In this document: piece after piece, positions 21,050 through 52,399 of the stretch
Numbering within the stretch: position 1 is the stretch's first letter
Layout: each line of letters starts with the position of its first letter
Assembly: GCA_009377815.1 (NCBI GenBank)
Contig: WHTI01000001.1
Location: 20,357-84,356 of the forward strand
From: Actinomycetota bacterium
GTDB lineage: Bacteria > Actinomycetota > CADDZG01 > WHSQ01
DNA length: 64,000 nt
Reading direction: 5' to 3'
Notes under the pieces: generated by a model
Told to the model about the DNA's origin: nothing
Databases searched by the model: none
Seen by the model: the letters and a program-made list of their open reading frames with translations, nothing else
Translations under genes and position numbers: made by a program

Positions 21050-21298
21050 CGCCGTACCTCCCTCTCCACTGAGGGCGACGCCGCCCTGGCCATTCACAAA
21101 GTAAAGGGAGATCGGCTTCTTGACCAGTGCGCTATCGCGTAAGTCTCGTCCACATCCAGAGCGCCCCTGCGCGGGGAGCGCAAGGCGCGAGGAGTCGGGC
21201 GTACCGGGGAGTACGTACGCGACGAGCAACGCTGCGATCGTCGATGCAGGGGCGCTCTGGGGGCACGGTGATTTGCGCGATGGCGCACTACGGCGAGA

Positions 21299-23863: not shown

Positions 23864-24058
23864 TCCTTTAGGTCCTTGGCTGGTTGGGATCGTCCTGTCC
23901 CGAGATTTCGCCCCGGTCGGAGAGGTTCCTGCCGGCCCCCCTGGATTCCGCCGCCCGGCTTCAAAGATGCCTCGATTACGTAGAGGCCCGGCCCCCTTTT
24001 GTGCCGATTCTTATCCATAGTGAGTTGCATGCCGTCTTCAGATCTCAGGAGGTTCACC

Positions 24059-24439: not shown

Positions 24440-24466
24440 CTCCGGAGGAGCGAACCAAGGGCCGCC

Positions 24467-26593: not shown

Positions 26594-26878
26594 GTTCTTC
26601 ACTCCTCTTAAGAGATCTGTGGTGTTCCCCAGCGTTCGTTGGACCACCACGGTAGCGAACGGTTACTTGACCGTCAGGTCCGAGACCGACATCAGACAAA
26701 CACCTGGGATTTCGTTCCATACAGGGTCCTATGCATGGGAATGAACCAGGTCCAATAGGTAGAAAAGCGTATCTATTTCTCCGAAAACCCTATTGAAAGG
26801 GACCCATAAGACCTAGATGCTGGGGACATCCACCAAAGATCTAGTTGATGCCCACTCGGGGGCTTCGAAGGGAGAAAC

Positions 26879-30196: not shown

Positions 30197-30330
30197 CTTC
30201 TGAAGCCTCACGGGGTCGACCTCCCAGCCTCGAGCGGGTGCTGGTCAGCAATTCGACCTCGACGTCCCGAGTCCTGCTTGGTTCGGGAAGTTCGACGTGG
30301 TTTGCGCCGATCCCTGATTCAATCCATGGG

Positions 30331-32172
30331 GTGTTCAAGCATGGGTCGAGGAGGCTCCGGTGGGCGGCGCTCGTGGTCGCCCTCATCGTCGTCGCGCTGG
30401 TGGTCGATGGCGTCTACGTCACGCTCCGCCTCAGGTCGTCCCAGCAGGCCGCGCTCGAGGAACTGGAGGAGGCCCGGGCTGCCTTCGATGCCGAAGACTT
30501 CACCTCGACCGCGGCGAGCCTCTCGAAGGCGAGGGACGCGACCAGCGCGCTCGTGAGTCTGACCGGGCATCCCTCGTTCAGGATCGCCGCACGTCTCCCC
30601 TTCATCGGAGGCGACGCCAGGGCGATCGAGTCCCTCGGTCGTGCCGCCGACCTGTCGGTCCGGGGTGGGGTGCTGCTGGTCGACGCCCTCGATGCGGCGT
30701 CGGACGGGGACCCCGGCTCCCTGGCCGAGTCCGTCTACCGGGACGGCACGGTCCAGTTCGCAGCGATCGATCGCGCCGCTCCGCTGGTGGAGGAGGCGGC
30801 CGCCCTCTTGGCTAGGGCCGAGAGCATCCTTGAGGAGGCTCCCGATCCGAAACTCGGGTCGGTGGAGGAGGCGCTGGAGGATGCCCGTGCGGAGGTCTCC
30901 TCGGCGTCGGTATCGACCCGGCGGGTCGCCGCGCTGATGGATGCCCTTCCATCGCTCTTCGGGCGCGACGGCGTGCGTCGTTACTTCCTCGCCTTCCAAT
31001 CTCCGAGCGAAGCACGCGGGTCCGGAGGGTTCCCCGGCGTCTTCGGGATCCTGAAGGCGGAGGAGGGGCGTTTGAGCCTCGGCGCGGTCCGACCGATCGG
31101 CTCTCTCGGACTGCTGAACTCTCCGGCTTCGGTGCCGGGCTGGTATCGCGATCTCTACAGGGACGTCGGAGCGTTGCGGGATCCTCGCCAGGCCGGTTAC
31201 TCGCCGAACTTCCCCGAGGTCGCGCGCGTGTGGCTCGAGGTCTACGAAGAGAGCACCGGCAACTCCCTCGACGGGGTGATGGCGATGGACCCGATCGTGC
31301 TGTCCGAGATGACCCGCGGTACCGGACCGCTCACCGTCGACGGGTTCGCCGGATCGATCGGGCCCGACAACGCGGTTGAGGCCCTCCTCTACGACAGCTA
31401 CGTCGAGTTCCCCGATCCTGACGATCAGAACCTCTACCTCGCAGCCCTCGTCGATGCCCTATGGCAACGTCTCGGAGCCGGGGATGTGGAGGTCGGACCC
31501 CTCGCCGAGGGGCTCGGCCGGGCCACGAGAGGGCAACATCTGAAGCTGTATTCGGTCGATGACGACGTGCAGGCTGCACTTGCGGACCTCGGGGTCGACG
31601 GCGACTACGCGGCGGTGGGGCCGAACGTGCAGCTCGTTTACGGCAACAACGCCGCCGCCAACAAGGTGGATTACTTCCTCACCCGCACTATCGACACGAT
31701 CGTCGAGCTCGAGTCCGACGGCGACGCGCGCGTAACAACGCGCATCGAGCTGACCAACAACGTTCCGGCCGATGCTCCGCCCTCGATCCTGTTCGGTCCC
31801 GGGGTCGAGGGGGACCGGGCGGGCATCAACGGCATGGTCCTCTATCTCTTGATGCCCGAAGGGAGCCGGCTGACGGGCTCGAGGGTTGACGGCGACCCAA
31901 GCGAGCCATTAGCGGGCCGGGAGGGCGATCACCCGGTCGCTTACGACCTCGTCGAGATCCTCCCCTCGGAAACCTCGATCGTGGAGTTCACCTACCTGGT
32001 GCCGTCGGCGTGGGATGAGAGCGACGGGACCTTCGCCTTCGACCTCTTCCCCCAGGCGACCGCGGTTCCCGACCGGTTCTCCCTGGAGGTCCGTCCGCCC
32101 GCCGGACCGGCGCTGGTCCGCAGCGGCATCCTGGACCGGACGATCTCGGTCCGGGCAACGTTCGGGAACTGA
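30331..32172 (+). CDS. DUF4012-like membrane-anchored protein, paralog B
   Basis: The ORF is open from 30238. GTG 30331 is chosen because it lies just before the TM helix 'RLRWAALVVALIVVALVVDGV', as in paralog A. 'YFLAFQSPSEARGSGGFPGVFGIL' and 'LDGVMAMDPIVLSEM'. Confidence 0.8.
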   Translation: MFKHGSRRLRWAALVVALIVVALVVDGVYVTLRLRSSQQAALEELEEARAAFDAEDFTSTAASLSKARDATSALVSLTGHPSFRIAARLPFIGGDARAIESLGRAADLSVRGGVLLVDALDAASDGDPGSLAESVYRDGTVQFAAIDRAAPLVEEAAALLARAESILEEAPDPKLGSVEEALEDARAEVSSASVSTRRVAALMDALPSLFGRDGVRRYFLAFQSPSEARGSGGFPGVFGILKAEEGRLSLGAVRPIGSLGLLNSPASVPGWYRDLYRDVGALRDPRQAGYSPNFPEVARVWLEVYEESTGNSLDGVMAMDPIVLSEMTRGTGPLTVDGFAGSIGPDNAVEALLYDSYVEFPDPDDQNLYLAALVDALWQRLGAGDVEVGPLAEGLGRATRGQHLKLYSVDDDVQAALADLGVDGDYAAVGPNVQLVYGNNAAANKVDYFLTRTIDTIVELESDGDARVTTRIELTNNVPADAPPSILFGPGVEGDRAGINGMVLYLLMPEGSRLTGSRVDGDPSEPLAGREGDHPVAYDLVEILPSETSIVEFTYLVPSAWDESDGTFAFDLFPQATAVPDRFSLEVRPPAGPALVRSGILDRTISVRATFGN

Positions 32173-32271: not shown

Positions 32272-33117
32272 ATGCGGGCAGATCGTGCGGGCCTCGGTTC
32301 TTGGTATGGGGAGATCCTCACCGAGAACCGCCTTGGGCATGCTCCGGCCCGAGTCCCGACCCCCTCCTACCGGGTCCTCGGCACCTCGATCGCCGCCGTC
32401 GATCCCGCCCGGGCCGTCGCTCACGTCGAGGGTATGGTCCGGTCCCGCAGCCGGGGGACCATCGCCTTCTGCACCGCCTCTACCGTCCTCGCCGCACGCC
32501 GGGATCCCGATCTCCGCCGGGCGCTGACGAACTCCTCGCTGGTCAATCCGGACGGGATGCCGCTCGTGTGGCTCGGCCGCCGAGCTGGGGTCGAGCTCGA
32601 TCGTGTCTACGGGCCCGATTTCATGCTGGATCTGTTCGCGGCGACCGGATCATCGCTCCGTCACTACTTCTACGGCGGAACCCCGGGTGTGGTCGACGCG
32701 CTGGTCGAGCAATTGAGCGAGCGTTTCCCCGAGATCCAGATCGTCGGGTCCCACACTCCGGAGTTCGGATTGACCGGACGTGATGTCATCGAGGCGGACG
32801 TTGCCCGCATCAACGCCGCGGCGCCCGACATCGTTTGGATCGGTCTCGGACATCCCAAGCAAGAACTCTGGATGGAAACCCACGTGGCGAAGCTGGATGC
32901 CTCGGTCCTCGCGGGGGTCGGGGCTGCGTTCGACTACCTCTCCGGCACCAAGAAGGAAGCGCCCGAGTGGATGAAGCGCTCGGGACTCCAATGGATGCAC
33001 CGGCTGGGATCGGAACCGCGCCGTCTGTGGAAGCGCTACCTCGTGGGCAACTCGACGTTCGTGGCGTTGCTCGTCGCCGAATGGGTCCGCACGGGACGGA
33101 TGGCCCATGTGGACTGA
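32272..33117 (+). CDS. WecB/TagA/CpsF-family glycosyltransferase (ManNAc-transferase type)
   Basis: 'VNPDGMPLVWLGRRAG', 'GHPKQELWM' and 'PEWMKRSGLQWMHRL' are family signatures. 11-nt overlap with the next gene. Confidence 0.85.
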   Translation: MRADRAGLGSWYGEILTENRLGHAPARVPTPSYRVLGTSIAAVDPARAVAHVEGMVRSRSRGTIAFCTASTVLAARRDPDLRRALTNSSLVNPDGMPLVWLGRRAGVELDRVYGPDFMLDLFAATGSSLRHYFYGGTPGVVDALVEQLSERFPEIQIVGSHTPEFGLTGRDVIEADVARINAAAPDIVWIGLGHPKQELWMETHVAKLDASVLAGVGAAFDYLSGTKKEAPEWMKRSGLQWMHRLGSEPRRLWKRYLVGNSTFVALLVAEWVRTGRMAHVD

Positions 33118-34219
33118 CGTCGGAGCGCTGCTACTCATAGCCACGGTGGCGTTCGGGACCACCGCTGCTCTCACGCCGGTGGTGCGATGGGTTGCTCTCC
33201 GAGGCGGCATGTCGGACGATCCCAGCCGACGGAGGTTGCATCAGGTCACGACGCCAACGATGGGTGGGATCGCGATCCTCGCCGGTTGGCTCCTCGCCAC
33301 CGCGATCTCCGGCCGGGGAGGCGATCTCTGGGCGCTGCTCGTCTGCGCCGGGGCTCTCGGCGTCATGGGATTCATCGACGACCGCTTCCATCTCGACGAG
33401 CACCTGCGGCTGGTTCTCCAGGTTCTCATCGCCGGCTTCGCGTGGGGGCATGGCTTCGGCCTCGAACTCTTCGGAACTCCCGGACTCAACCTGATCGTGT
33501 CGCTCTTGTGGTTGGTTGGGATCACCAACGCGTTCAACTTCATGGACAACATGGATGGCCTGGCATCCGGAGCCGGAGCCGTGGCCGCTACGACCCTGGC
33601 CGCGCTGGGTCTGTTCGCCGGAGACATCGGGATCGCGTTCGTCGCCATCGCACTCGCCGGTGCGCTGGCCGGTTTCCTGCCGCACAACTTCCACCCGGCG
33701 CGCATCTTCATGGGCGATACCGGCAGCCTCCCGCTGGGCTTCGCACTCGCGGCGCTCGGGGCGCGCCTATCGACCGACGGGCTCCACCCGTTCGTGGCGA
33801 CCGCCATCCCGGTGGCGGTGCTCGGGATCTTCGTTTTCGACACCTCGCTGATGGCGATCGGAAGGGTTATCCGTCGAGAACCGGTGATCGGCGCCCGGAT
33901 GGACCACACCTCGCATCGACTGTTGGGCACGGGTCTTCCGGTGCGGGCCGTGGCGTTGCGGTTGTATCTGGTTTCGGTTCTCTACTCGACGATCGGCCTG
34001 TCGCTGGCGCTCCTGCCGGCCCAGTGGGCGGTCGCCGTCTGCACGGCAACGTTCGTGGGTAGCGCCCAGGTACTGCTCCGCCTGCTACCGCTTCCGGCCC
34101 TGGTGCGCGAGGGCGATGCTCTGGTTCCGGTGGCCGAACCCACGCCCCGGATGCCACGTTTCCGCCTGTCCGACGCCATCGAGCCGATCACCCTGTCCGA
34201 GGACGCCCTGATCGACTAG
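33107..34219 (+). CDS. MraY/WecA-family polyprenyl-phosphate HexNAc-1-phosphate transferase
   Basis: 'TPTMGGIAILAG', 'NAFNFMDNMDGLASG' and 'FMGDTGSLPLGF'. About 10 TM helices. Confidence 0.9.
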   Translation: MWTDVGALLLIATVAFGTTAALTPVVRWVALRGGMSDDPSRRRLHQVTTPTMGGIAILAGWLLATAISGRGGDLWALLVCAGALGVMGFIDDRFHLDEHLRLVLQVLIAGFAWGHGFGLELFGTPGLNLIVSLLWLVGITNAFNFMDNMDGLASGAGAVAATTLAALGLFAGDIGIAFVAIALAGALAGFLPHNFHPARIFMGDTGSLPLGFALAALGARLSTDGLHPFVATAIPVAVLGIFVFDTSLMAIGRVIRREPVIGARMDHTSHRLLGTGLPVRAVALRLYLVSVLYSTIGLSLALLPAQWAVAVCTATFVGSAQVLLRLLPLPALVREGDALVPVAEPTPRMPRFRLSDAIEPITLSEDALID

Positions 34220-34249: not shown

Positions 34250-35737
34250 TTGCGTATTTACTTCGATTGGTCTTATGCCGACATTAGAGGGGTGAGAGGA
34301 GAGGATCGGGGCCGTCCGGCACGGTTGATCGGGGCGCTATGTGGCGCCCTTCTCGCGTTGACCCTCGCCCCGGCCGCCTCGGCCCAGGTGCTCCCCGATC
34401 TGCCCGAGTTCCCGGATCTCTGCGTCCCGGTCCCGCCCGGCGCCGACCTCCCCACGCTGGTCGACGCCTCACTGCCCGGCCAGAGCTTCTGCCTCGATGC
34501 CGGGCTCCACAGGGTCTCCAGGACGATCCGCCCGAAGGCCGACCAGAGTTTCATCGGCGCCCCCGGCGCGGTGCTCTCCGGCGCGATCTCCGTTGTTGGA
34601 TTCACCTCGACCTCGGGAGCGTTCTCCGCTCCCGCGCCCATCGTCGAACCGGTGATGCGTGGGGAGTGCCGGGATGCAACCTCCGGTCTCTGCCGCATCC
34701 CCAACACCGTGTTCGTGGACGACGTCCCGATGGTCCCGGCGCCCTCGCTCGACGAACTCGATGCCGGCGAGTCGTTCCTCGACTACGACACCGCGGCGCT
34801 CTACCTCGCCGAGGAGCCGGCGGGTTCCGAGGTCGAGGTGGCCTCGACGCCATTCGCCTTCTACGGCATCAATCTCGGAACCGGGACGCCCGGGGTGTCG
34901 ATCTCGGGCCTGGTGATCGAGAAGTTCGCCAACCTCGCCCAGTCCGGAGCCATCTCGACCTACACCGGCACCGACTGGCGGATCGAAGACAACGAGATCC
35001 GCCTCAATCATGGGTGCGGCATTTGGTCGGGTAGCGGAGCCGTGGTGAGCGGTAACTACGTCCATCACAACGGTCAGCTCGGACTCTGCGGTCAGGGCGA
35101 CTCGATCCTGGTCGAGAACAACGAGATCTCCTTCAACAACAACAAGGGGTTCGATCCGCGCTGGGAGGCCGGCGGTTCGAAGTGGGTCAACACCACCGAC
35201 CTGATCGTCCGCGGCAACCACTCGCACAACAACTACGGTCCCGGCCTCTGGACCGACATAAACAACCTGGACGTTCTCTACGACGGGAACCTGATCGAGT
35301 TCAACGAGAACGAAGGCATCCTCCACGAGATCTCCTACCGCGCCGTGATCCGCGGCAACACGATCCGGCGAAACGGACTCACCGCGTCGAAGGGCGTCGC
35401 CGGCTCCGGGATCACGATCTCAACGTCACGAGACGTGACCGTGACCGGCAACCGCATCGCCAAGAACCGCAACGGCATCCTGCTCCGCTCCGACGACCGA
35501 GGAACCGGAACGCACGGCCTCTATCTCCTCGAGAACGTCCGGGTCGCCGCCAACCGCATCCGCATGACCCGAGGCTTCACCGGCGTTCTGGGATCCGCAG
35601 CAGGCTCCTCGGTGTACTCAGGCGTCACGTTCGAAAACAACACCTACCGGGTGGGCAAGAAGAAGAAGGCCTTCCGGTGGCGAGATCGCATGCTCACCCT
35701 CCGGGGCTGGCGATCCCAAGGCAACGACCGCCCCTGA
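34250..35737 (+). CDS. secreted right-handed beta-helix repeat protein (possible glycan lyase/hydrolase/epimerase)
   Basis: Signal 'GALLALTLAPAASA|Q'. Repeated 'NxIxxNxxxGI' turns, e.g. 'GNYVHHNGQLGLCG', 'NNEISFNNNKGF', 'GNHSHNNYGPGLW', 'GNLIEFNENEGI'. Start uncertain: 34250, or GTG 34292. Confidence 0.7.
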   Translation: MRIYFDWSYADIRGVRGEDRGRPARLIGALCGALLALTLAPAASAQVLPDLPEFPDLCVPVPPGADLPTLVDASLPGQSFCLDAGLHRVSRTIRPKADQSFIGAPGAVLSGAISVVGFTSTSGAFSAPAPIVEPVMRGECRDATSGLCRIPNTVFVDDVPMVPAPSLDELDAGESFLDYDTAALYLAEEPAGSEVEVASTPFAFYGINLGTGTPGVSISGLVIEKFANLAQSGAISTYTGTDWRIEDNEIRLNHGCGIWSGSGAVVSGNYVHHNGQLGLCGQGDSILVENNEISFNNNKGFDPRWEAGGSKWVNTTDLIVRGNHSHNNYGPGLWTDINNLDVLYDGNLIEFNENEGILHEISYRAVIRGNTIRRNGLTASKGVAGSGITISTSRDVTVTGNRIAKNRNGILLRSDDRGTGTHGLYLLENVRVAANRIRMTRGFTGVLGSAAGSSVYSGVTFENNTYRVGKKKKAFRWRDRMLTLRGWRSQGNDRP

Positions 35738-35861
35738 TGCTTCAGGCTCTCAGCCACTGGTGATCCGTCCGGACCGAAAAAAGTTCAGAAATCTTCGACG
35801 ATCGCCTCGAAATGGCCCGTTTCGGGCGTCTCGTGTCACACCCCCTCGTCAGAATGAAGGG

Positions 35862-37055
35862 ATGAAAACCACCCACGAGGCCCGCGCGGTCGAGTCTCTG
35901 AAGAAGGCGAACTCGGAGCTCGAGCCGGACCTAATCTCCATCCCCGAGGCCAAGGCACGTATGAAGGACTTCATCCAGGCCCAGCGCCTGGCCGCCTTCG
36001 GGGTCGCCGCTCTGGCAGGCAAGATCGACGACGCCGAGTCCCTCGCGCGAGCTACCGGCACCTCGATAGGCAAGGCCAAGGAAACCCTGGCGACGAGCGA
36101 AGTCCTGGCCAGCTCCGCGCCGTTGAACGCAGCTCTACGCAGCGGCGAGGTGTCCTTGGATCAAGCAACCGAGATCGCTCGCGCCGAAGGTGCCGCTCCC
36201 GGCTCCGCCAAGGAGCTCCTCAAGGTCGCTAAGAAGGAGTCGTTCCACGTGCTGAGGGACGAGGCCCGCAGGACCAAGCTCGAAGCCGAGCAGCACCAGG
36301 GCCTGGCGGAGCGACAGCGGAAGGCCCGGCGGTCTTCGCATCACGCCGACGAACTCGGCATGGTCAACGTCCACCTGTCATTCGAGCCTCACATCGGAGC
36401 ACCAATCATGACTCGTGCCGAAGCCGGGGCGGAGAGGTTGGCCCGAGCCGCCAAGAAGGCAGGCGGCGAGGTGGAACCCTTCGAGCGCTATCTCGCCGAT
36501 GCCTACGCCGAACTGATCGAGGGATCGGGCAAGGGACGGGCCAAGCGCCCCGAGCTGGTGATCCTGGTCAGCCACGAGGTCGCCACGCGCGGATGGACCG
36601 AGGTTCGCAAGGGCGAGGTGTGCAAGATCCCCGGAATCGGCCCGGTAGCTCCCGAGATCGCCAAGGAGATCGCCAAAGATGCGTTCCTCAACGGCGTGTT
36701 CTACGACGGAAAGGACCTCCGTCACTTCAAGCGCTGGGGACGCTCCACCCCGGTCGAGATCAGCGTCGCCCTGGAGTTGGGCAAGGCTCCCGAGTTCAAG
36801 GGCGTCCGGTGCGTCGACTGCGGCAACAGCTTCAGGCCCCAGTTCGACCACATCGAACCGGTCGCCGCGCGGGGACCAACCGCACACTTCAACTTCGACC
36901 CGCGCTGCGACCCCTGCCACAAAGCCAAGACCGCCCGCGACCGGCGCGCCGGGAAACTCAAACCCAAGACCAAACCCAAGGCGGCGACGAGAAAACCCAA
37001 AGCCACGACCACCCGCACCCGCCGCAGCGCCACGGCGAACCCGAACGCCCCCTAG
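35862..37055 (+). CDS. DUF222-HNH endonuclease (13E12-repeat-like selfish gene)
   Basis: Start at ATG 35862, after GAAGGG. The long helical N-terminus and 'CVDCGNSFRPQFDHIEPVAARGPTAHFNFDPRCDPCHKAKT' (HNH Cys/His pattern) match actinobacterial DUF222-HNH proteins. Lys/Thr/Pro-rich basic tail. Confidence 0.8.
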   Translation: MKTTHEARAVESLKKANSELEPDLISIPEAKARMKDFIQAQRLAAFGVAALAGKIDDAESLARATGTSIGKAKETLATSEVLASSAPLNAALRSGEVSLDQATEIARAEGAAPGSAKELLKVAKKESFHVLRDEARRTKLEAEQHQGLAERQRKARRSSHHADELGMVNVHLSFEPHIGAPIMTRAEAGAERLARAAKKAGGEVEPFERYLADAYAELIEGSGKGRAKRPELVILVSHEVATRGWTEVRKGEVCKIPGIGPVAPEIAKEIAKDAFLNGVFYDGKDLRHFKRWGRSTPVEISVALELGKAPEFKGVRCVDCGNSFRPQFDHIEPVAARGPTAHFNFDPRCDPCHKAKTARDRRAGKLKPKTKPKAATRKPKATTTRTRRSATANPNAP

Positions 37056-37284
37056 TAGATCGCGCCGGTTTCCAGACAAGCGGAGCGAGCCCCCCGAGGC
37101 CGCGCCCGGAACCGATCCGCAAGGCCCGGAACGAAGCGGGCCCCCGGAGCGAACCCTCAAAACGCTCTGGGTGAGCGGAGCGGGGGCCGCTTGCTACCGG
37201 AGCCGGCCCCAGGTTCCGGCGAGCCACGACCCAGGGAGGCGGAGCGGAAGGGATTGGGCCCCCGCCGCCGTATCTCCCCTTCAA

Positions 37285-38097
37285 ATGGCGCAGACCGTCA
37301 TCTTCCTGCACGTCCCACGCACGGCCGGGACCTCGTTGGGGAGCATCCTCGGACGGCAGTACCCGAAAGGGTCGATCTACCGGGGTGGCCTCCTCAAGGA
37401 TGAGGACCTGGCGTCTTTCCGCGCGCTCGATGAGGGCCGGAGGGAAAGCCTGGCCCTGGTCGACGGCCACATGCTGTTCGGCCTCCACGAAGACATCCCC
37501 GGGGATTCGACCTACATCACGTTCCTTCGGTCTCCGGTTGATCGGGTGGTCTCGTATTTCTTCTATCTGAAGCGGCGGCCCCAGACACCGCTCAACAAGA
37601 GGATCGAATCGCAGAACCTCGATCTCCGAGCGTTCGTTGAACGAGCTGAAGCGCGTCTTCACACCCACGATGGAGCCACCAGGATGATCTCGGGCGGGGG
37701 TCTGGACGCGTTCGAGGAGGATCCGGACGGGATGCTGGAACGTGCGAAGGCCAACCTCGAGGCGTCGTTCTCATGTGTTGGATTGTCCGAACGCTTCGAC
37801 GAGTCCGTCCTTCTTCTGAAGGCGGAGCTCGGGTGGTCCCGGCCCGTGATGTACGCACGCAAGAACGTCACCGCGGCGCGTACGTCCCTCGATGATCTGA
37901 GCTCGGCGGAGCGTACCGCGATCGAACAGGTGAACCAGCACGACATGGAGCTGTACGAGTTCGCCAAGTCGTTGTTCGAACGGCGACTCGCGGCGCACAC
38001 GACGATCGACAGCGAGATCGCGCGGCTGCGGAGGATGAACGCCTTCTACCGACCGGCAGCCGGAGCGAAGGCTAGGGTCCTGGGCAGGGTCCGGTGA
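37285..38097 (+). CDS. sulfotransferase family protein (ST1)
   Basis: Start at ATG 37285. The longer ORF from 36679 overlaps the HNH gene and looks non-coding there. 5'-PSB-like 'FLHVPRTAGTS' and 3'-PB-like 'FLRSPVDRVVSYFFY' PAPS-binding motifs. Confidence 0.75.
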   Translation: MAQTVIFLHVPRTAGTSLGSILGRQYPKGSIYRGGLLKDEDLASFRALDEGRRESLALVDGHMLFGLHEDIPGDSTYITFLRSPVDRVVSYFFYLKRRPQTPLNKRIESQNLDLRAFVERAEARLHTHDGATRMISGGGLDAFEEDPDGMLERAKANLEASFSCVGLSERFDESVLLLKAELGWSRPVMYARKNVTAARTSLDDLSSAERTAIEQVNQHDMELYEFAKSLFERRLAAHTTIDSEIARLRRMNAFYRPAAGAKARVLGRVR

Positions 38098-39287
38098 GGC
38101 TGCTGGCGACCGCGTACGCGTGCGAGCCGAACCGAGGCTCGGAGCCGGGGGCGGGCTGGGCATTGGCGCGTTCCCTCGCGTCGTTCGCGGACACACACGT
38201 GATCACACGCACCGGCTACCGGGAGGCGATCGAGGCTGAGCTGCCGCACATCCCCGAGCGCGACTCGCTGCACTTCCACTACGTGCAGCTGCCGCGCCGG
38301 GCGGCGTTCTACAAGAAAGGTCAACGAGGGATCCGTCTCCACTACATATTGTGGCTCCGGGCGGCACACGCGGTAGCCAACGAATTGTCCGGCCGGCACG
38401 ACTTCGACGCTGCGTGGCACCTCACGATGGCGAACGCATGGCTCGGCTCTCCCGGGGGTCCGGATGGGATGCCGTTCATCTATGGCCCCGTCGGCGGAGG
38501 AGTGGTGCCGCCGGCCGGGCTGTTGCTCTCGCTCGGGCCGCGGGGCATGGCCTACGAAGGGACGCGTCTCGCCATGCGCGCAGGCTTCCGTTATCTGAAC
38601 CCCATGGCGCGGTCGGCCGTGAAGAGAAGCTCTGCCGTGTTGGTGCAGAATCCGGATACCGCCGCGTTCCTCCCTCGCAAACAACGAGGCAAAGCTCTCG
38701 TGTTCCAGAATGCACTGTTCCCGGGGAACCCTCCGGGCACTCGTCCCTCTGGCAGTCGTCCACGCGTTGCGTTGTTCGCGTCTCGACTGCTCGCGTGGAA
38801 GGGAGCGCATCTCGCCGTGGGCGCGCTTGAGTACGCTCCGGCCTGGCGGTTGATCATCTGCGGGGACGGACCAGACGGAGCGCGTCTGCGGCGCATCGTC
38901 GAACGTTCGCCGGCGCGGGAGCGCATCGAGCTCCGCGGCGCGGTGAGCCGGGACGAGGTGCTGCGCACGATGCGTGAGGAAGCCGGAGCATTCATCCTCC
39001 CCAGCCTCCACGACGACTCTCCGCTGGCGGTCGCCGAGGCGGTTGCCTCCGGACTTCCGGTCGTATGCCTTGACCGGGGTGGTCCGCCGATCGTTGCCGG
39101 AGGGGCGGGGATCGCGGTGGAGGCCGCCGGTCGGCGCGTGACCGAGCAGCGTCTGGCGAACGCGCTCGAGGCATCGCTGGATCTCGAGATCCCCACCGAT
39201 GAGGCGGCGCGGTTGTCACTGGCACAGGCGAGTGATCGCCTCGCAAGCATCGTCAAATCGGTGCTCAGGGAACCGGCTCCCGCATGA
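38094..39287 (+). CDS. glycosyltransferase family 4 (GT-B)
   Basis: 'RLLATAYACEPNRGSEPGAGW' N-terminus, typical of one GT4 subgroup. C-terminal 'LPSLHDDSPLAVAEAVASGLPVV' (E-x7-E region). GTGA overlap with ST1. Confidence 0.8.
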   Translation: MRLLATAYACEPNRGSEPGAGWALARSLASFADTHVITRTGYREAIEAELPHIPERDSLHFHYVQLPRRAAFYKKGQRGIRLHYILWLRAAHAVANELSGRHDFDAAWHLTMANAWLGSPGGPDGMPFIYGPVGGGVVPPAGLLLSLGPRGMAYEGTRLAMRAGFRYLNPMARSAVKRSSAVLVQNPDTAAFLPRKQRGKALVFQNALFPGNPPGTRPSGSRPRVALFASRLLAWKGAHLAVGALEYAPAWRLIICGDGPDGARLRRIVERSPARERIELRGAVSRDEVLRTMREEAGAFILPSLHDDSPLAVAEAVASGLPVVCLDRGGPPIVAGGAGIAVEAAGRRVTEQRLANALEASLDLEIPTDEAARLSLAQASDRLASIVKSVLREPAPA

Positions 39288-40354
39288 AAGTCCTCCACTT
39301 CTTCCCCCAAACCCTCACCGCCGATGGGGGCCCGGCGTTGTCGGTTCGAGGCTGGGCCCGCGGCATGGCCCGAGCTGGAGCCGAGGTATCCGTCGCGTGC
39401 GCCGGCGGGAACATGGCCGGCACCCAGGAAGGCGTGACCTTCCGGAGCGTCGCTCTCAGGGCCCGGCATTCACTGCAGTACCCCAGCGGCCTAAGGGAGC
39501 TCCTCCCCGGCCACGACGTGCTGTTCCTCCACTCCGGCTGGACGCCCTACAACCTGTGGGGGGCGAAGCTCGCCCGACGCGCCGGTGTGCCCTACGTGTT
39601 GGTCCCGCACGGCGCCTACGAGCCCGACGTGCTGGCCCGAAGCAGGGCGACCAAGCTCCTGTGGCGAACCACTTCGGAGAGGACGGTGATCGAAGGAGCG
39701 TCCGCGGTGCACATCTTCTTCGAGCAGGAGCAGCGCAACATCAGTGCAGTGGGGGCCGAGTGCCCCGTACTCGTCGCGCCCAACGCCGTCGATGTGCCCC
39801 TCGATCGGAGCTGGGACGGCGGGAGCGGCGGCTACCTCTTGTGGATCGGGCGCTACGACATCCACCACAAGGGACTCGACATCCTCATCGACGCGTTCTC
39901 TAGCCTCCCGACCCCCCGCCCCCCGCTGGTTATGCGCGGTACGGGAGAGCAAGGCCGTGCGGAACTCGAGCGCTACGCGGAGAAGCGCGGCGTGCACGAC
40001 GTCCTGATCGAGGGCCCCGTAGAGGGCGACGACAAATGGGATCACTTCTGCCGGGCGCGGGCGTTCGCCTTCGCCTCGCGGTACGACTCCCACTCGATCG
40101 CGATCATGGAGGCCGCCGCCCTCGGGGTGCCGATCGCCGCTGCGGACAACACCTACGTGGGTGAGTTTCTCGCCTCGCAGGGAGCGGCGGCCGGTGCTCC
40201 TGCCGAACCGGATGCCTTCGCGCGGGCACTCGCCGACGTCCTGTCCGAGAACGGGATCAGTTACGGGGCGACGGCCGGCTACCTGGTGCGCTCCTCGGTC
40301 TCGTGGGAGTCCTCGGCTCGCAACCTGCTGGGCCAGCTCGAGGCGGTCCTATGA
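39284..40354 (+). CDS. glycosyltransferase family 4 (GT-B)
   Basis: 'MKVLHFFPQ...GGPA' N-terminus and 'ASRYDSHSIAIMEAAALGVPI' (E-x7-E-like). ATGA overlap on both sides. Confidence 0.8.
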   Translation: MKVLHFFPQTLTADGGPALSVRGWARGMARAGAEVSVACAGGNMAGTQEGVTFRSVALRARHSLQYPSGLRELLPGHDVLFLHSGWTPYNLWGAKLARRAGVPYVLVPHGAYEPDVLARSRATKLLWRTTSERTVIEGASAVHIFFEQEQRNISAVGAECPVLVAPNAVDVPLDRSWDGGSGGYLLWIGRYDIHHKGLDILIDAFSSLPTPRPPLVMRGTGEQGRAELERYAEKRGVHDVLIEGPVEGDDKWDHFCRARAFAFASRYDSHSIAIMEAAALGVPIAAADNTYVGEFLASQGAAAGAPAEPDAFARALADVLSENGISYGATAGYLVRSSVSWESSARNLLGQLEAVL

Positions 40355-41442
40355 GACCCGCCGACATCGCTCTCGTGACTCAAAGCACCGGTGCCTTCGA
40401 TCGCATCGCTCGCTGGCTGAGCCGCGGCTTCAACGATCTTGGTGCGCGTCTCGACCTGGTCACGATCGACGGGCCATCCGGCATGGAGCATGACGGAACC
40501 ACTCGGTGGATCGGGCTCGGCCACACTCGGGCGGTGCGCTCGACCGGAGCGATCGCGTCTTACTTCCGTTCCAACCGGCCGACCCTCGCCCTCTCATCTC
40601 CGGAGTTCGTGTCCCCCTATGTCCTGTTCGCGGGACGGCGAGCACAGGTTCCCGTGATCCCATGGGAGGCGTCGTTCGTGAACTTCGGGATGTCGGAGCT
40701 CGCGCCTCGCAAACGCCTGCTCCCGACCCTGCAGAAGCGGACCTACCGGAACGCGCCGGCGGTCGCCGCGGTGTCGAGCGATCTCTTGGATCATCTGGGC
40801 GCCTTCCTCGGGACGTCACCCCCGCTCGAGCTGGTCGAGAACCCGGTGGACGTCGACGAGATCCGCTCTCTCGGGGCGCGAAAGGAGAGCAAGACCGCGG
40901 CGGTGCGTCTCGTTGCCTGTGGTCGCATCAGCGTGCACAAGGGGTACGACGTGCTGATCGAAGCCCTCGCTGAGGCCGGCGATCGTTTGGGGGACTGGGA
41001 GTTGCTCGTGCTCGGTACCGGGCCCGGACGGCGCGCCCTGCGTGAGCAGATCGTGGCCGTCGGCCTGAAGGACCGCGTTCAGATCCGCGGCGAGGTCCAG
41101 GATCCCTATCCGGCCATCGCGTCCGCCGATCTGTTCGTGCATCCAGCGCGCCGCGAGGGATTCGGGCTGGCGATCGCCGAAGCGATGGCGCTCGGCGTCC
41201 CGGTGATCTCGACGACCTGTCCGGGAGGCCCCCGGCGATTGCTTCGCGGAGGAGGCGCCGGGGTGCTCGTTCCTCCCGACGATGCCGGGGCTCTCTCGGC
41301 CGCGATCCTGGACGCGATCCGTTCTCCGACCTCCCTGGCCCCACTGGTCGAACGCGCTGCGATGGTGGTCGAGGAGTACTCACCCAAGGCGTGCGCGGAA
41401 CGGATGCTGGAGCTCGCCGACCGCTACGGGAGGCCCTCGTGA
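40351..41442 (+). CDS. glycosyltransferase family 4 (GT-B)
   Basis: 'GRISVHKGYDVLIEA' and 'HPARREGFGLAIAEAMALGVPVIST' (E-x7-E). Start at ATG 40351, overlapping the previous stop. Confidence 0.8.
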   Translation: MRPADIALVTQSTGAFDRIARWLSRGFNDLGARLDLVTIDGPSGMEHDGTTRWIGLGHTRAVRSTGAIASYFRSNRPTLALSSPEFVSPYVLFAGRRAQVPVIPWEASFVNFGMSELAPRKRLLPTLQKRTYRNAPAVAAVSSDLLDHLGAFLGTSPPLELVENPVDVDEIRSLGARKESKTAAVRLVACGRISVHKGYDVLIEALAEAGDRLGDWELLVLGTGPGRRALREQIVAVGLKDRVQIRGEVQDPYPAIASADLFVHPARREGFGLAIAEAMALGVPVISTTCPGGPRRLLRGGGAGVLVPPDDAGALSAAILDAIRSPTSLAPLVERAAMVVEEYSPKACAERMLELADRYGRPS

Positions 41443-42281
41443 ACGCGGTCCGCTGGCGATGGATGGGTTTCGGGCGACGGGTGTCGAGCGCGTTGACGGG
41501 CTACCCCCGCCTTAGGTGGCGGGTCTTCCGGTTCTTCTCGGCACTGGGTCGGCGGATGGGCCGCGCCGAGCGCCGGTGGGTCACGGTTAGATCGGGGGCC
41601 CGGTTCCGGCTCGATCTCGACGATCCGCTCCAGGAGCAACTCTTCGTCTACGGCGAGTACTCGAGGCCCGAGATCGAACGGCTCATCCGCAACCTGCGAC
41701 CCGGCGACGTGTTTGTGGACGTCGGCGCCAACATCGGTCTGTTCTCGGTCGAGATCGGCCGACACGTCGGCTCCCGGGGCCGGGTCGTGGCGATCGAACC
41801 GGCCGCCGACAGCGCTCGCCTCGCGAGCGAGCATGTCGCGATCAACGAGCTGCAGGACGTCGTTGAGGTTCACGAGTTGGCCCTGGGGGAGAGGGAGGAT
41901 CAACTCACGCTCTTCGCACCGGCCGACGATCCCCTCGATGTCGGTCGGCGATCGTTGCTCGGATCCGATGGGTCGGCGGTCGGGACCGTTGCGGTCCGCT
42001 CGCTCGACGGCCTGGTCGCTACCGGTGGTCTTGATCTCCCCGAGGTCCACGCGATCAAGATCGATGTCGAGGGCTACGAGGTGGCCGCACTGCGGGGGAT
42101 GAGGGCAACGATCGAGGGATGCCGCCCGCGCATCGTGCTCGTCGAAACGGTCATCGCGAACCTGGCCCGAGCCGGGAGCGAAGTCGTCGAGATCGACGAC
42201 CTCATGCGGTCCTTTGGGTACCGCCGGCTTCCGGGCGACCCGGAGAACGCGGCCTACGTTCCTGGGGGTTCCGATGACTGA
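41439..42281 (+). CDS. FkbM-family methyltransferase
   Basis: 'FVDVGANIGLFS' SAM-binding motif and 'IKIDVEGYEVAAL'. GTGA overlap with the upstream GT. Confidence 0.8.
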   Translation: MNAVRWRWMGFGRRVSSALTGYPRLRWRVFRFFSALGRRMGRAERRWVTVRSGARFRLDLDDPLQEQLFVYGEYSRPEIERLIRNLRPGDVFVDVGANIGLFSVEIGRHVGSRGRVVAIEPAADSARLASEHVAINELQDVVEVHELALGEREDQLTLFAPADDPLDVGRRSLLGSDGSAVGTVAVRSLDGLVATGGLDLPEVHAIKIDVEGYEVAALRGMRATIEGCRPRIVLVETVIANLARAGSEVVEIDDLMRSFGYRRLPGDPENAAYVPGGSDD

Positions 42282-43200
42282 ACTACCGTCGATCGCGCTC
42301 GTGACGCCGAACTACAACCAGGCTCATCTGATCCGGGGCGCCCTCGAATCGGTCCTCGATCAGGGGTATCCGAACCTCGAGTACGTCGTGATCGACGGTG
42401 CCAGCACCGATGGGTCGGCCGACGCGATCCGCGAGTACTCCGACCGCCTCCACTTCTGGATCTCCGAGCCGGACTCCGGCCACTACAACGCGGTCAACAA
42501 AGGCTTCGAGAAGACGACCGGCGAGATCATGGGCTACCTGAATTCCGACGACACCCTGCTTCCCGGGGCACTTGGGACCGTGGCCGAGATCTTCACTCGC
42601 TTCCCCGAGATCGAGTGGATCACAGGGTCGCACACCGCGATCGACTCGCAGGGCCGTCCGGTCGCGGTGACGCTCCCCGACGTGTGGTCGCGGTGGCACA
42701 CGATCAGCCGAAAGGTGCACCGGTTCATCCCGCAGGAGTCGACCTTCTGGCGGCGCTCGCTATGGGAGCGTGCCGGGGGAGGACTGGACGAGGCGTATCC
42801 GCTGGCTGCCGACTACGAGTTGTGGACGCGCTTCGCGACCCACGCCCAGCTTCACACGGTCTTCGCTCCCCTAGGGTGCTTCCGGTTCGTCGAGGGCCAG
42901 CGATCGGTCGCCCAACGTGACGGCTACTGGGAGGACGTCGAGAGGGTTCGCAGGAAAGTGCTCGAGGCACCGGGATCCGCCCGCGCTCTGCGGGTTGCCG
43001 ACCTTGGTCTTACGGTCACCGACGTGATCGGCCTGCGCCGCCTCCGGCGGAAGGTGAACCGAGCGCTTGGCGCACCGGCCGAGATCGTGTTCGTTCCCGA
43101 GGCGATGGAGTTCCAACGGGTCGCCGATCGATCCAGCGGAGCGCTCGGCCGGCGCATGTTCAGGGCATTCGGCGGACGGGCTGCGGGAGGTCGCTCGTGA
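42274..43200 (+). CDS. glycosyltransferase family 2
   Basis: 'IALVTPNYNQAHLIRGALESVLDQGYPNLEYVVIDGASTDGS' and 'LNSDD' (DxD). Confidence 0.85.
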   Translation: MTELPSIALVTPNYNQAHLIRGALESVLDQGYPNLEYVVIDGASTDGSADAIREYSDRLHFWISEPDSGHYNAVNKGFEKTTGEIMGYLNSDDTLLPGALGTVAEIFTRFPEIEWITGSHTAIDSQGRPVAVTLPDVWSRWHTISRKVHRFIPQESTFWRRSLWERAGGGLDEAYPLAADYELWTRFATHAQLHTVFAPLGCFRFVEGQRSVAQRDGYWEDVERVRRKVLEAPGSARALRVADLGLTVTDVIGLRRLRRKVNRALGAPAEIVFVPEAMEFQRVADRSSGALGRRMFRAFGGRAAGGRS

Positions 43201-43868
43201 AGCGGCGGCGGCGCGCGGCGCAGAGGATCGCCCAGTCCGACGCGGTTCAGCGCATCGCTCCCGGCATCCGGCGGCGCGCGATGAACGCCGCGGCTCGCCT
43301 CGTTGGGCGCGAACTGATCCATTACGACTTCGACCAGATGATCGAGCGCGGCATCGTTGAGATGGGCCGGCATTGCATCGCCCGGCCCCTGATCCGCGGG
43401 GCGTGGACCGGTGACGACAGCGAACCGAAGCTGCGGATCGGTCACTTCTGCGGCATCGCCGAGGACGCCGAGTTCCTCCTGGGGACGGAGCACCGCACCG
43501 ATCGGGTCACCACCTTCCCCCTGCGTGGAGTGCTTCACGGACAGATGGGGGTCGATGGGCCGTACACGAAGGGCGAGACCGTCGTCGGGAACGACGTGTG
43601 GATCGGCTACCGAGCGACGATCGCCTCCGGCGTCACGATCGGCAACGGAGCGGTGGTTGCGACCCGGGCCATGGTCGCCAAGGACGTGCGCCCCTACGCG
43701 ATCGTCGCGGGCAACCCGGCGCGGGAGATCCGCAGGCGGTTCACCGACGAACAGATCGAGGCGCTCGAGAAGATCGCGTGGTGGGATTGGCCCGACGAGG
43801 AGATCTCGGAACACGCCGACCTGATCTGCAGCGAGGACGTCGACGCCTTCATCGCCCGCTTCCTCTAG
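43197..43868 (+). CDS. hexapeptide-repeat O-acetyltransferase (XAT/CatB-related), copy 1
   Basis: '[68 protein letters not shown]'. Paralog of 56389..57039. Confidence 0.85.
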   Translation: MKRRRRAAQRIAQSDAVQRIAPGIRRRAMNAAARLVGRELIHYDFDQMIERGIVEMGRHCIARPLIRGAWTGDDSEPKLRIGHFCGIAEDAEFLLGTEHRTDRVTTFPLRGVLHGQMGVDGPYTKGETVVGNDVWIGYRATIASGVTIGNGAVVATRAMVAKDVRPYAIVAGNPAREIRRRFTDEQIEALEKIAWWDWPDEEISEHADLICSEDVDAFIARFL

Positions 43869-43874
43869 CTCGCA

Positions 43875-43933
43875 TGAAAATGGTACTGAGCCCCGCGTGA
43901 AAATGGTACTGAACCCCGCGTGAAAATGGTACT
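43875..43933 (+). repeat. 23-bp tandem direct repeat, about 2.6 copies (TGAAAATGGTACTGARCCCCGCG)
   Basis: Copy 1 is 43875-43897. Copy 2 is 43898-43920 with one mismatch. Copy 3 (43921-43933) is truncated and diverged. AT-rich relative to its surroundings and directly upstream of the AAA ATPase start. Confidence 0.9.
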
Positions 43934-43941
43934 CTAGGGCC

Positions 43942-45168
43942 ATGGAATACCGCCCCAGGGCCCTGGAACCACTTCTGGCAGAGCTGTTGACGGAATTGCC
44001 TGCGTTGCTCCTAGTCGGCCCTCGTGCGACCGGAAAGACGACCACGGCCGGCCGGTACGTGACTCGCGTCGTGCGTTTGGACAGGCCCGCGGAGGCCGCT
44101 GCTTTCCGTTCCGATCCCGATGCCGCCTTGAAGTCGATAGAGGGGCCCGTACTGCTGGACGAGTGGCAGGCCGTGCCTCAGGTTCTTGGCGCGGTGAAGC
44201 GGGCGGTGGATGCCGGAGCAGGACCAGGCCGGTTCCTCCTCACAGGCTCCGTCCGAGCGCAACTGGACTCTGAAACTTGGCCCGGCACTGGTCGCCTGGT
44301 CAGATTGGCGCTATTCGGAATGACCGTGCGGGAGCAACTCGACCGTTCGGGTCCGGCGTTCATCGATCGGGTGCTTGGAGGGGCAGATCTCGAGGTGCCG
44401 GCGGTTCTTCCAGACCTTCCCGGGTACATCGACCTTGCGCTCAGGAGCGGTTTCCCAGAAGCCGCTCTGTCTCTATCCGAACGGACGCGAGACCGCTGGC
44501 TCGAGAGCTATCTTGATCAACTTCTCACCCGCGATGCGATCGAGCTCGAGGGAAGACGCGATCCATCAAAACTCCGTCGCTACTTTGAAGCGTTTGCACT
44601 CAACTCCGCGGGTCTCGCCGAGGACAAGACCATCTACGACGCGGCGGGTGTGAATCACAAGACGGCAGGCGCTTACGAAGGGCTCTTGAGGGATCTCTTG
44701 ATCACCGATGCGATACCGGCGTGGGTCTCGAACCGTCTGAAAAGGTTGACCAAGGCATCGAAGCGGTACGTTGTTGACCCCGCACTCATGGCGACGGCCC
44801 TGGGGCTCGATGCGAGTGGTGTATTGCGGGAGGGAGACATCATGGGCCGCTTGCTCGACACCTTCGTGGTCGCACAACTGAGACCGGAGCTTGAGCTAGT
44901 GAGGCCGAACGCGCGCCTCCACCACCTCCGAGTCGAAGGGGGCCGCCGCGAGGTGGATCTATTGATCGAGATCGGCGGCGAACGGGTCATCGCGATCGAG
45001 GTGAAGTCCGGCGCGGCCCCTAACCGCTCCGATGCACGACACCTAGTCTGGCTCCGCGATGAGCTCGGTGATCGATTCGAGGCGGGCATCGTCTTCCATA
45101 CTGGCCCGAACGTCTACGGTCTCGACGAGAAGGTCGTCGCGGCCCCGATCTGCGCTCTCTGGGCGTAG
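43942..45168 (+). CDS. AAA+ ATPase of the AAA_14/DUF4143 type
   Basis: Walker A 'LLVGPRATGKTT' and Walker B-like 'VLLDEWQ'. The C-terminal 'REVDLLIE..GERVIAIEVKSG' restriction-endonuclease-like fold is typical of DUF4143. Many more A/T-ending codons than neighbouring genes. Confidence 0.8.
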   Translation: MEYRPRALEPLLAELLTELPALLLVGPRATGKTTTAGRYVTRVVRLDRPAEAAAFRSDPDAALKSIEGPVLLDEWQAVPQVLGAVKRAVDAGAGPGRFLLTGSVRAQLDSETWPGTGRLVRLALFGMTVREQLDRSGPAFIDRVLGGADLEVPAVLPDLPGYIDLALRSGFPEAALSLSERTRDRWLESYLDQLLTRDAIELEGRRDPSKLRRYFEAFALNSAGLAEDKTIYDAAGVNHKTAGAYEGLLRDLLITDAIPAWVSNRLKRLTKASKRYVVDPALMATALGLDASGVLREGDIMGRLLDTFVVAQLRPELELVRPNARLHHLRVEGGRREVDLLIEIGGERVIAIEVKSGAAPNRSDARHLVWLRDELGDRFEAGIVFHTGPNVYGLDEKVVAAPICALWA

Positions 45169-45175
45169 CGCAGAG

Positions 45176-52396: not shown

Positions 52397-52399
52397 TGA

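Follow-up and report, generated by a model that had tools for sequence, protein, structure and literature searches.

What would two genes that look like sulfotransferases be doing inside a glycan cluster of an uncultured actinobacterium? We address this question for a 64,000-nucleotide stretch of a metagenome-assembled genome (MAG) of the Actinomycetota (contig WHTI01000001.1 of GCA_009377815.1; hereafter, the window), in which the two genes, here called ST1 and ST2, lie among genes for glycosyltransferases (GTs), other glycan-modifying enzymes, and an ATP-binding cassette (ABC) exporter. We consider it probable, judging from sequence, modeled fold, and gene context, that ST1 and ST2 are active, soluble, cytoplasmic carbohydrate O-sulfotransferases that depend on 3′-phosphoadenosine-5′-phosphosulfate (PAPS) and decorate the exported glycan of the locus. 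This reading draws on the family to which the proteins belong, their modeled fold, their conserved residues, the gene context, and the fact that a sister genome has kept both genes.

ST1 (37285–38097, + strand) encodes a predicted cytoplasmic PAPS-type carbohydrate sulfotransferase (ST) of 270 aa and opens a translationally coupled run of seven genes. ST2 (45176–45997, – strand; 273 aa) is a homologue of ST1 with the same motifs and is divergent from wzm. The ST1 translation contains FLHVPRTAGTS and FLRSPVDRVVSYFFY, and the ST2 translation contains FLHIPRTAGST and FLRDPIDRVVSLYHF; the first element, which includes the 5′-phosphosulfate-binding (PSB) loop, occupies residues 7 to 17 in both proteins. 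In ST1, we assign the PSB loop to P11-R12-T-A-G-T-S, a candidate catalytic histidine to His62, and the 3′-phosphate-binding (3′-PB) motif to R82 through S90. An earlier reading made from the DNA letters and their translations (the sequence-only reading) had proposed these coordinates, open reading frames (ORFs), and 5′- and 3′-binding motifs, and had called the two proteins paralogues; translation bears out the former, and an identity of 41% over 257 residues (E 2e-66) bears out the latter. We rejected a recent tandem duplication, as the identity is just 41%, the genes lie 7 kb apart, and their branches in a neighbor-joining (NJ) tree are very long. Both ORFs are intact, with third-position GC contents (GC3) of 0.80 (ST1) and 0.89 (ST2) in a window of 64.7% GC, and we conclude from codon signature and GC3 that ST1 and ST2 are genuine genes. 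Because the first β-strand and the PSB loop open the proteins (the loop from residue 7), neither has a signal peptide or transmembrane anchor, and both would therefore act in the cytoplasm, where PAPS resides. An exact-sequence look-up of the two proteins matched no database record, which is probably explained by other start codons in the deposited annotation. GenBank numbering leaves two accessions (MPZ67935 and MPZ67936) between the TagO-like gene of the locus and its first GT4 gene, where three ORFs are present (a β-helix protein, an HNH protein, and ST1); one of the three, possibly ST1, may be unannotated in the deposited MAG, or ST1 may be annotated with a different start.

Are these proteins sulfotransferases? 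Both exceed curated gathering cut-offs: ST1 scores 59.8 bits and ST2 41.6 bits against PF06990 (Gal-3-O_sulfotr; cut-off 27), and each scores 30.3 bits against PF03567 (Sulfotransfer_2; cut-off 22). Searched as a single sequence against PDB sequences, ST1 retrieves heparan sulfate (HS) 6-O-sulfotransferase HS6ST3 (E 1.7e-5) and the HS 2-O-sulfotransferase HS2OST (E 4e-4), and a profile of 18 family members lowers these values to 6e-18 for HS 6-O-sulfotransferase and 1.2e-14 for HS2OST. An AlphaFold2 model built with the family alignment (predicted local distance difference test, pLDDT, 89.9; predicted template-modeling score, pTM, 0.88) places a strand at residues 4 to 8 and a helix at 15 to 25 around the PSB loop. 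Its best Foldseek matches in the PDB are HS2OST and HS6ST (E 8e-9 to 1e-7, TM 0.62–0.66), with HS2OST first (E 8e-9, TM 0.63–0.66), and all 11 of the matches at E≤1e-3 are PAPS sulfotransferases. The predicted fold thus agrees with that of the PAPS-dependent HS 2-O and 6-O sulfotransferases. An alignment of 18 family sequences shows no variation at F7, H9, G15, G61, H62, G66, H68, Y77, R82, P84, R87, and S90. In HS2OST, the counterparts of R82 and S90 are the Arg and Ser of RDPIERLVS, its 3′-phosphate-binding segment, and the likewise unvarying G61-H62 pairs with an HGH (chain residue 444 in the profile alignment), which corresponds to His140-Gly-His142 by a chain offset derived from the PKTAS and RDPIERLVS alignments. 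We take HS2OST His142 to be the catalytic base. The sequence-only reading had placed ST1 and ST2 in the sulfotransferase families and expected their PAPS-binding residues to be conserved; the profile scores agree with the placement, and R82, P84, R87, and S90 agree with the conservation. By profile similarity, the two proteins are members of the Sulfotransfer_2/Gal-3-O-ST/HS-2-O/6-O-ST lineage, and we are confident that they are true sulfotransferases.

What might they sulfate? Pfam scans of about 50 window ORFs, on which our annotation of the locus rests, surround ST1 and ST2 with the genes of a glycan pathway. At its upstream end, a WecG/TagA/CpsF-family glycosyltransferase predicted to add the second linkage-unit sugar (32272–33117, +; PF03808, 189.7 bits; MPZ67933) adjoins and overlaps the gene for a Glycos_transf_4 protein, a WecA/TagO-like polyprenyl-phosphate sugar-1-phosphate transferase for priming (33107–34219, +; PF00953, 120 bits). 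ST1 follows at some distance and leads directly into three successive GT4 glycosyltransferases (38094–39287, 39284–40354, and 40351–41442, +), each with a 4-nt overlap onto the preceding gene, an FkbM-type S-adenosylmethionine-dependent methyltransferase (41439–42281, +; a candidate glycan O-methylase, possibly a capping enzyme), a GT2 glycosyltransferase (42274–43200, +), and a hexapeptide-repeat acetyltransferase (43197–43868, +; an alternative start at 43281 would fit the 195-aa protein of the sister genome). The seven genes are joined by ATGA or GTGA junctions with 4-nt overlaps, one of 8 nt, and have no internal stops; ST1 itself overlaps the next GT gene by GTGA. On the other side of ST2, across a divergent spacing of 64 bp, begin Wzm, the ABC-2 permease of the glycan exporter (46062–46883, +; PF01061, 69.6 bits; MPZ67945), and Wzt, its ATPase (46883–48133, +; PF00005, 77.7 bits). 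The locus thus has, as predicted from these families, a complete glycan pathway of TagO/TagA-like primers, GT4 and GT2 enzymes, methyltransferase, acetyltransferase, and Wzm/Wzt. These data uphold what the sequence-only reading had said of the surroundings, namely that ST1 heads a seven-gene overlapping run, that ST2 is divergent from wzm, and that the context is an ABC-exported glycan. It had also named an actinobacterial source, and seven neighboring proteins exactly match records within MPZ67933 to MPZ67948 of an Actinobacteria/Actinomycetota MAG (locus tags GEU71_*; 94-kb contig).

Under our preferred reading, the glycan would be primed on polyprenyl-phosphate at the inner face of the membrane by the WecA/TagO-like enzyme and then the WecG/TagA-like enzyme, and the chain would be extended by GT4 and GT2 enzymes on the cytoplasmic face. 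Decoration would also be cytoplasmic, with methyl groups from the FkbM methyltransferase, acetyl groups from the hexapeptide acetyltransferase, and sulfate from ST1 and ST2, each perhaps with its own target hydroxyl or its own target sugar. In each ST, PAPS would be held by Arg12 of the PSB loop and Arg82/Ser90 of the 3′-PB motif while His62 deprotonates the acceptor hydroxyl, and the finished anionic, lipid-linked polymer would be exported via Wzm/Wzt and join the cell envelope. Within this scheme we infer that the acceptor is the glycan of the locus, that the two STs have distinct regiospecificities, that sulfation occurs before export, and that the genome supplies PAPS. The TagO/WecA- and TagA/WecG-type pair is the one that makes the linkage unit in wall-teichoic-acid-like or secondary cell-wall polymer pathways of Gram-positive bacteria, in which an LCP ligase joins the polymer to peptidoglycan. 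Because the scanned window ORFs gave no Pfam match to an LCP ligase (LytR_cpsA_psr), which may be encoded elsewhere, attachment of the polymer to the wall can only be inferred.

Does the family keep similar company in other genomes? In an exhaustive search, the representative clusters numbered 11,145 at E≤1e-3 and 881 at E≤1e-30; fused tandem STs (541–1250 aa, with two to four ST domains) were among the matches. At least two ST paralogues occur in 24 of 79 homologue loci and GT2/GT4 ORFs in 36 of 77, and in 8 of 79 a strict Wzm/Wzt pair lies no more than 10 kb from the ST; the Wzm/Wzt and GT counts come from phmmer and hidden Markov model screens that were seeded with window proteins, are of limited sensitivity, and lack a genome-wide baseline, and the counts are lower bounds rather than enrichment statistics. 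Five ST-family ORFs in Candidatus Frackibacter sp. WG13 (L072) and three in a Caldilineales MAG (L073) lie, in each case, within one 10- to 20-kb stretch, and multi-site sulfation systems appear to exist in the family. Plasmid-borne relatives carry the NCBI name 'sulfotransferase family 2 domain-containing protein'.

We also screened the related loci for APS kinase (APS, adenosine-5′-phosphosulfate) with an approximate E. coli CysC query, and accepted its two matches after Pfam confirmation. In a Pyrinomonadaceae genome (L034, Acidobacteriota), a PAPS synthase (PUA_2, ATP-sulfurylase, and APS_kinase domains) ends ∼100 to 135 bp 5′ of an ST homologue, depending on the start codon, and in a Chthoniobacterales genome (L035) a CysN-CysC fusion lies ∼8 kb from an ST homologue. 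At least two genomes therefore show a physical linkage between the ST family and PAPS production. The gene order in L034 is ST, PAPS synthase, ST, Wzm, Wzt (with Wzt_C), methyltransferase, Sulfotransfer_3, GDP-mannose dehydratase, epimerase, and GT2; positions 6856–15710 of L034 (MAG DASVVT010000010.1) form a compact 'sulfation cassette' that includes a third ST of a different family and is followed by genes for a GDP-fucose-type sugar. For the study of sulfated glycans exported by ABC transporters in Acidobacteriota, L034 would serve well as a model. A second Chthoniobacterales locus (L083, Verrucomicrobiota) has the order GTs, ST, methyltransferase, a protein of no assigned function, Wzt (with Wzt_C), and Wzm, and with L034, L083, and the window taken together, a module of an ST, an adjacent Wzm/Wzt pair, and a methyltransferase is present in three phyla.

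The exporter itself raises the possibility of a more restricted role for the STs. The wzm and wzt genes abut at 46883, and Wzt (416 aa) extends ∼170 residues beyond a bare ATPase, the C-terminal part spanning ∼47573–48133. Wzt itself scores 12.1 bits (E 0.2) against Wzt_C (PF14524), below the cut-off of 30.4; its C-terminal ∼170 residues are 41% identical (E 1e-35) to residues 231–399 of homologue P0141, a stretch with a Wzt_C match just above the cut-off, and PF14524 is found in most relatives that are 50 to 57% identical to Wzt over more than 90% of its length. A homologue search with the C-terminal 186 aa alone gave no match, and the full-length query was needed. By transitive homology, the Wzt C terminus is predicted to be homologous to the Wzt_C carbohydrate-binding domain. 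Characterized Wzt carbohydrate-binding domains recognize the chemically modified nonreducing end of the glycan, and export depends on this recognition (PMC9445017; WbdD, PMC3482155). By analogy with these systems, the polymer of the locus therefore probably bears a terminal cap, for which the FkbM methyltransferase is the conventional candidate enzyme and a sulfotransferase an unconventional one.

It could thus be that one ST, alone or with FkbM, adds a single sulfate to the nonreducing end, where it stops elongation and creates the epitope that the Wzt C-terminal domain reads before export. The methyl-phosphate of E. coli O9a is a precedent for such a cap, the predicted homology to Wzt_C and the way characterized domains read a modified chain terminus fit it, ST2 is immediately divergent from wzm, and the arrangement of an ST beside Wzm/Wzt (with Wzt_C) and a methyltransferase recurs in the Verrucomicrobiota and Acidobacteriota loci described above. 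We nevertheless judge it unlikely. A sulfate cap is not described for any ABC-dependent glycan in the literature we searched, FkbM is the more conventional capping candidate, the Wzt_C score in the window is below threshold, a single cap needs fewer than two STs, and a clear Wzm/Wzt pair is present in just 8 of the 79 homologue loci. If it were true, ABC-transporter-dependent glycan assembly would gain a terminator of a new chemical class, a sulfate cap that licenses export, and such caps could be widespread in soil bacteria, as the L034 and L083 modules suggest.

Several observations weigh against the interpretation that ST1 and ST2 are active decorators of the glycan of the locus. The PSB-loop position of the canonical Lys (motif P-K-x-G-[ST]-[ST]) holds Arg in both proteins (PRTAG versus PKTAG), and an NCBIfam scan of ST1 and ST2 returned no model naming either. 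ATP-sulfurylase, APS_kinase, and PAPS_reduct gave no Pfam match among the ∼50 ORFs of the 64-kb window, in keeping with the statement of the sequence-only reading that no PAPS-synthesis genes are visible there, and many Actinomycetota assimilate sulfate via APS without making PAPS. One homologue, from a member of the Thermoleophilia (P0031), has no glycan context. Genes for Wzy_C and Wzz-kinase proteins are also present, and the locus may therefore produce several polymers, any of which might be the acceptor of the STs. Finally, the source is an uncultured MAG and the sulfotransferase assignment is a predicted one.

Two of these points, the Arg and the lack of PAPS genes in the window, would be expected if the STs were disabled by the Lys-to-Arg change or idle in an organism without PAPS, the genes being recent passengers from another phylum. 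The sequence-only reading had quoted the PSB-loop motif correctly and had left the change unflagged in both proteins. Among the top 120 homologues, ∼114 carry Lys and ∼6 carry Arg at this position, and in an NJ tree (rough and star-like, with long branches) ST1, ST2, and their orthologues from the sister MAG cluster with other Arg-type sequences. At the equivalent position, tyrosylprotein sulfotransferases rely on Arg: the tick residue Arg74 and Arg78 of human TPST2 touch the 5′-phosphate, and their mutation lowers activity (PMC10951654). Because Arg is a working residue in those enzymes, we read the PSB-loop Arg as a subfamily variant rather than an inactivation and, by analogy, as compatible with catalysis. 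That the Arg recurs in a clade of the family, and that the remaining catalytic and PAPS-binding residues are all invariant, also speaks against disabled enzymes.

The sister genome bears on the same issue. The nearest relatives of ST1 and ST2 (90% and 92% identical, respectively) are encoded in an uncultured Actinomycetes MAG, MFD04212.bin.2.127, in a locus that is colinear with the window at 83 to 87% DNA identity and has both STs in the same positions. Because the ORFs are intact and the protein identity of 90 to 92% exceeds the DNA identity, the comparison argues for purifying selection on the STs. Relative to the sister, the locus in the window has taken two independent single-gene insertions. 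One, of 1.5 kb (35732–37248, +), carries a 431-aa ORF (35760–37055) whose only Pfam match is a marginal one to an HNH nuclease (21.7 bits against a cut-off of 21.4); the other, of 1.3 kb (43870–45193, +), carries an AAA_14 and DUF4143 ATPase ORF (43942–45168) between the acetyltransferase gene and ST2. A right-handed β-helix protein (34250–35737, +; Pfam) is encoded directly upstream of ST1 in the sister MAG, at a distance of ∼80 bp, and because of the 1.5-kb insertion ST1 in the window is instead preceded by a 229-bp gap. This insert looks like a selfish or mobile gene, and it may uncouple ST1 from the upstream operon. The sister MAG has two versions of the locus, L002/L005 (contig_5382, 573 kb) and L003/L004 (contig_69943 in ERZ25039516; contig_20529 in the MAG record). 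In the contig_5382 version, the TagO-like, β-helix, wzm, and wzt genes are fragmented and the ST2 region is unrecognizable, and the short-contig version is intact; the difference could stem from frameshift errors in long reads, from heterogeneity among strains, or from the decay of a second copy.

Outside the sister MAG, relatives of ST1 and ST2 are at most 47% identical, and named genome matches are mostly from Chloroflexota, Cyanobacteria, Verrucomicrobiota, Planctomycetota, and Proteobacteria, with just two from other Actinomycetota (Thermoleophilia and Iamiaceae). An ancient horizontal origin of the ST genes is plausible. We tried and rejected a horizontally acquired compositional island, since GC content and skew are flat along the locus and codon bias is host-like. 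For passengers without function, one may cite these distant relatives (∼40% identical and mostly from Chloroflexota, Cyanobacteria, and Verrucomicrobiota), which fit a horizontal origin, and the two selfish-looking insertions. Against them stand the intact ORFs with strong host-like codon bias, the absent island, and the identities that point to purifying selection, and we see only a very slim chance that the genes are dead or idle.

The acceptor is a separate matter. ST1 and ST2 might be true sulfotransferases that act on a glycolipid, on the lipid-linked primer only, on a small molecule, or on a protein, their location among glycan genes being partly incidental. Specificity for the acceptor is not readable from sequence, bacterial STs that act on Nod factors and mycobacterial sulfolipids are well known (as cited in PMC8205485), a glycan cluster is missing around one homologue at least (P0031), and GT2/GT4 genes are found in just about half of the homologue loci. 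This arrangement would, however, have to explain why ST1 is translationally coupled to three GT4 genes and to methyltransferase, GT2, and acetyltransferase genes, why ST2 adjoins wzm, why both positions are kept in the sister MAG, and why the nearest solved relatives work on polysaccharide chains. We consider it improbable and retain the exported glycan of the locus as the predicted acceptor.

The remaining features of the window are as follows. Downstream of wzt lie genes for a GT2 (48133–49092, +), a Wzy_C/O-antigen-ligase-like membrane protein (49076–50446, +), a second GT2 (50290–51261, +), a GT4 (51212–52399, –), and a Wzz-domain and P-loop (tyrosine-kinase-like) co-polymerase protein (52400–54685, –), all assigned with Pfam. 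In addition to the Wzy_C and Wzz-kinase genes, a Wzx/MOP flippase was looked for, and the scan of the window ORFs gave no match to that family. A DUF4012 protein (30238–32172, +) marks the upstream edge of the locus and has a paralogue at 24440–26311; two large right-handed β-helix (NosD-like) proteins are encoded at 26849–29779 and 34250–35737, one of which has RTX repeats at its C terminus, and a further, small protein with RTX repeats is encoded at 8271–8864. Judged from their sequences, these DUF4012, β-helix, and RTX proteins would be secreted, bind calcium, and possibly act on glycans, in association with the locus. Just 5′ of the glycan region (19267–24010, –) are three successive ORFs for a DivIVA-domain protein and for proteins of 410 and 903 aa without a Pfam match. 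Further upstream, a 241-aa protein (8819–9544, +) matches the eukaryote-typical Scramblase family (PF03803, 80.8 bits), and at 10145–17545 two permeases, a solute-binding protein, and a MalK-like ATPase make up an ABC system for sugar uptake beside a GH94 cellobiose/chitobiose-phosphorylase-type enzyme, a region of ordinary carbohydrate catabolism that is unrelated to the STs.

How unusual would the predicted pathway be? The sequence-only reading had called sulfation of bacterial glycans rare, which overstates the case: the family has more than 11,000 representative clusters, marine Gram-negative bacteria make sulfated capsules (PMC11641403), and an actinomycete cluster with two STs has already been proposed (PMC13390465). 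The ST family is already known: Pfam has curated models for it, and environmental bacteria carry it widely. What sets this locus apart is a pair of STs from a single Arg-type subfamily, the combination, in the Actinomycetota, of TagO/TagA priming with a Wzm/Wzt exporter for which a carbohydrate-binding domain is predicted, and the absence of a local PAPS module. If our reading is true, the product would be a sulfated, ABC-exported, TagO/TagA-primed polymer in the Actinomycetota, a phylum for which the literature we searched holds no chemically shown sulfated envelope polysaccharide; a single paper, from 2026, considers sulfation possible for an Actinoplanes extracellular polysaccharide. A permanently charged, phosphate-free anionic wall polymer of this kind could stand in for teichoic acids in cation binding, hydration, and phage or lectin recognition, and would draw on sulfur instead of phosphorus. 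Soil phyla (Chloroflexota, Verrucomicrobiota, Acidobacteriota, Cyanobacteria, and Planctomycetota) abound in relatives of the animal HS 2-O/6-O sulfotransferases. Because the family is often multi-copy and sometimes sits beside PAPS synthase and Wzm/Wzt, glycan sulfation in bacteria would therefore be much commoner than the 'cyanobacteria only' statement of recent papers. The ST-family enzymes are also candidate tools for the enzymatic sulfation of polysaccharides.

How does the locus compare with systems that are better understood? Among single enzymes, the closest counterparts of ST1 by sequence profile and fold are the animal enzymes HS2OST (PDB 3F5F and 4NDZ) and HS6ST (PDB 5T03 and 5T05), with which it shares the strand-loop-helix PSB loop, the 3′-PB motif RxPxxRxxS, and a His aligned with HS2OST His142. 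In contrast to these Golgi enzymes, ST1 and ST2 are bacterial proteins of ∼270 aa without membrane anchor or stem and are predicted to be cytoplasmic, their PSB loop has Arg instead of Lys, and the identity is just ∼20%.

For the exporter, the closest comparison is with the E. coli O9a/O8 and Klebsiella O12-type systems, which likewise have Wzm/Wzt, with a C-terminal domain of the Wzt_C kind that is predicted here, encode modification enzymes beside the transporter, and assemble the glycan in the cytoplasm (PMC9445017, PMC3482155). No sulfate is known among their caps, which are methyl, methyl-phosphate, or Kdo; the host of the window, in contrast, is a member of the Actinomycetota that presumably lacks an outer membrane and lipopolysaccharide, its priming enzymes are TagO/TagA-like, and its Wzt_C assignment is by transitive homology. 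A more ambiguous parallel is the wb(salmo) cluster of Aeromonas salmonicida, in which ORF19 (216 aa) has an ST domain and lies beside wzt in an ABC-2-dependent cluster whose published O-antigen structure is sulfate-free (PMC4483657). The likeness to the window, an ST-domain gene in an ABC-dependent glycan cluster, is one of gene context. By analogy, this case is a caution to be set with the points that weigh against our reading, and also a hint for a terminal sulfate, as a substoichiometric sulfate at the chain end would account for a sulfate-free repeat-unit structure despite the ST gene.

Among whole clusters with two STs, the wps-1 cluster of Actinoplanes missouriensis is the actinomycete parallel: it has two predicted sulfotransferases (WpsB and WpsH), both needed for sporangium formation, together with a methyltransferase, and a sulfated polysaccharide is predicted without chemical proof (PMC13390465, June 2026). 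It differs in being a Wzx/Wzy system with STs from different InterPro families in a cultured, genetically tractable host, whereas the window locus is ABC-transporter dependent and comes from an uncultured MAG. Marine Gram-negative bacteria supply sulfated capsules of solved structure (Vibrio sp. KMM 8419, PMC11641403; Cobetia marina KMM 1449, PMC11766843), from clusters that, like ours, unite GTs, an ABC transporter, and sulfotransferases. These are diderm hosts with a Kps-type exporter and their own cysDNC copies for PAPS, a 'hallmark' according to the authors, in contrast to the window, which is without cysDNC. The xss cluster of Synechocystis PCC 6803 is an extracellular-polysaccharide cluster with many GTs and two ST genes, xssA and xssE; its product, synechan, has chemically shown sulfate at about two sulfates per repeat, a number that matches the two ST genes (PMC8205485). 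The differences are a cyanobacterial host, Wzx/Wzy, and an XssA and XssE of different ST subfamilies (PMC8205485), compared with Wzm/Wzt, TagO/TagA-like priming, and a single ST family in the window; a tblastn summary of plasmid matches names no Synechocystis plasmid among its organisms. By analogy, synechan and the Vibrio capsule show that gene clusters bearing sulfotransferases can make sulfated polysaccharides, as we predict for the locus of ST1 and ST2.

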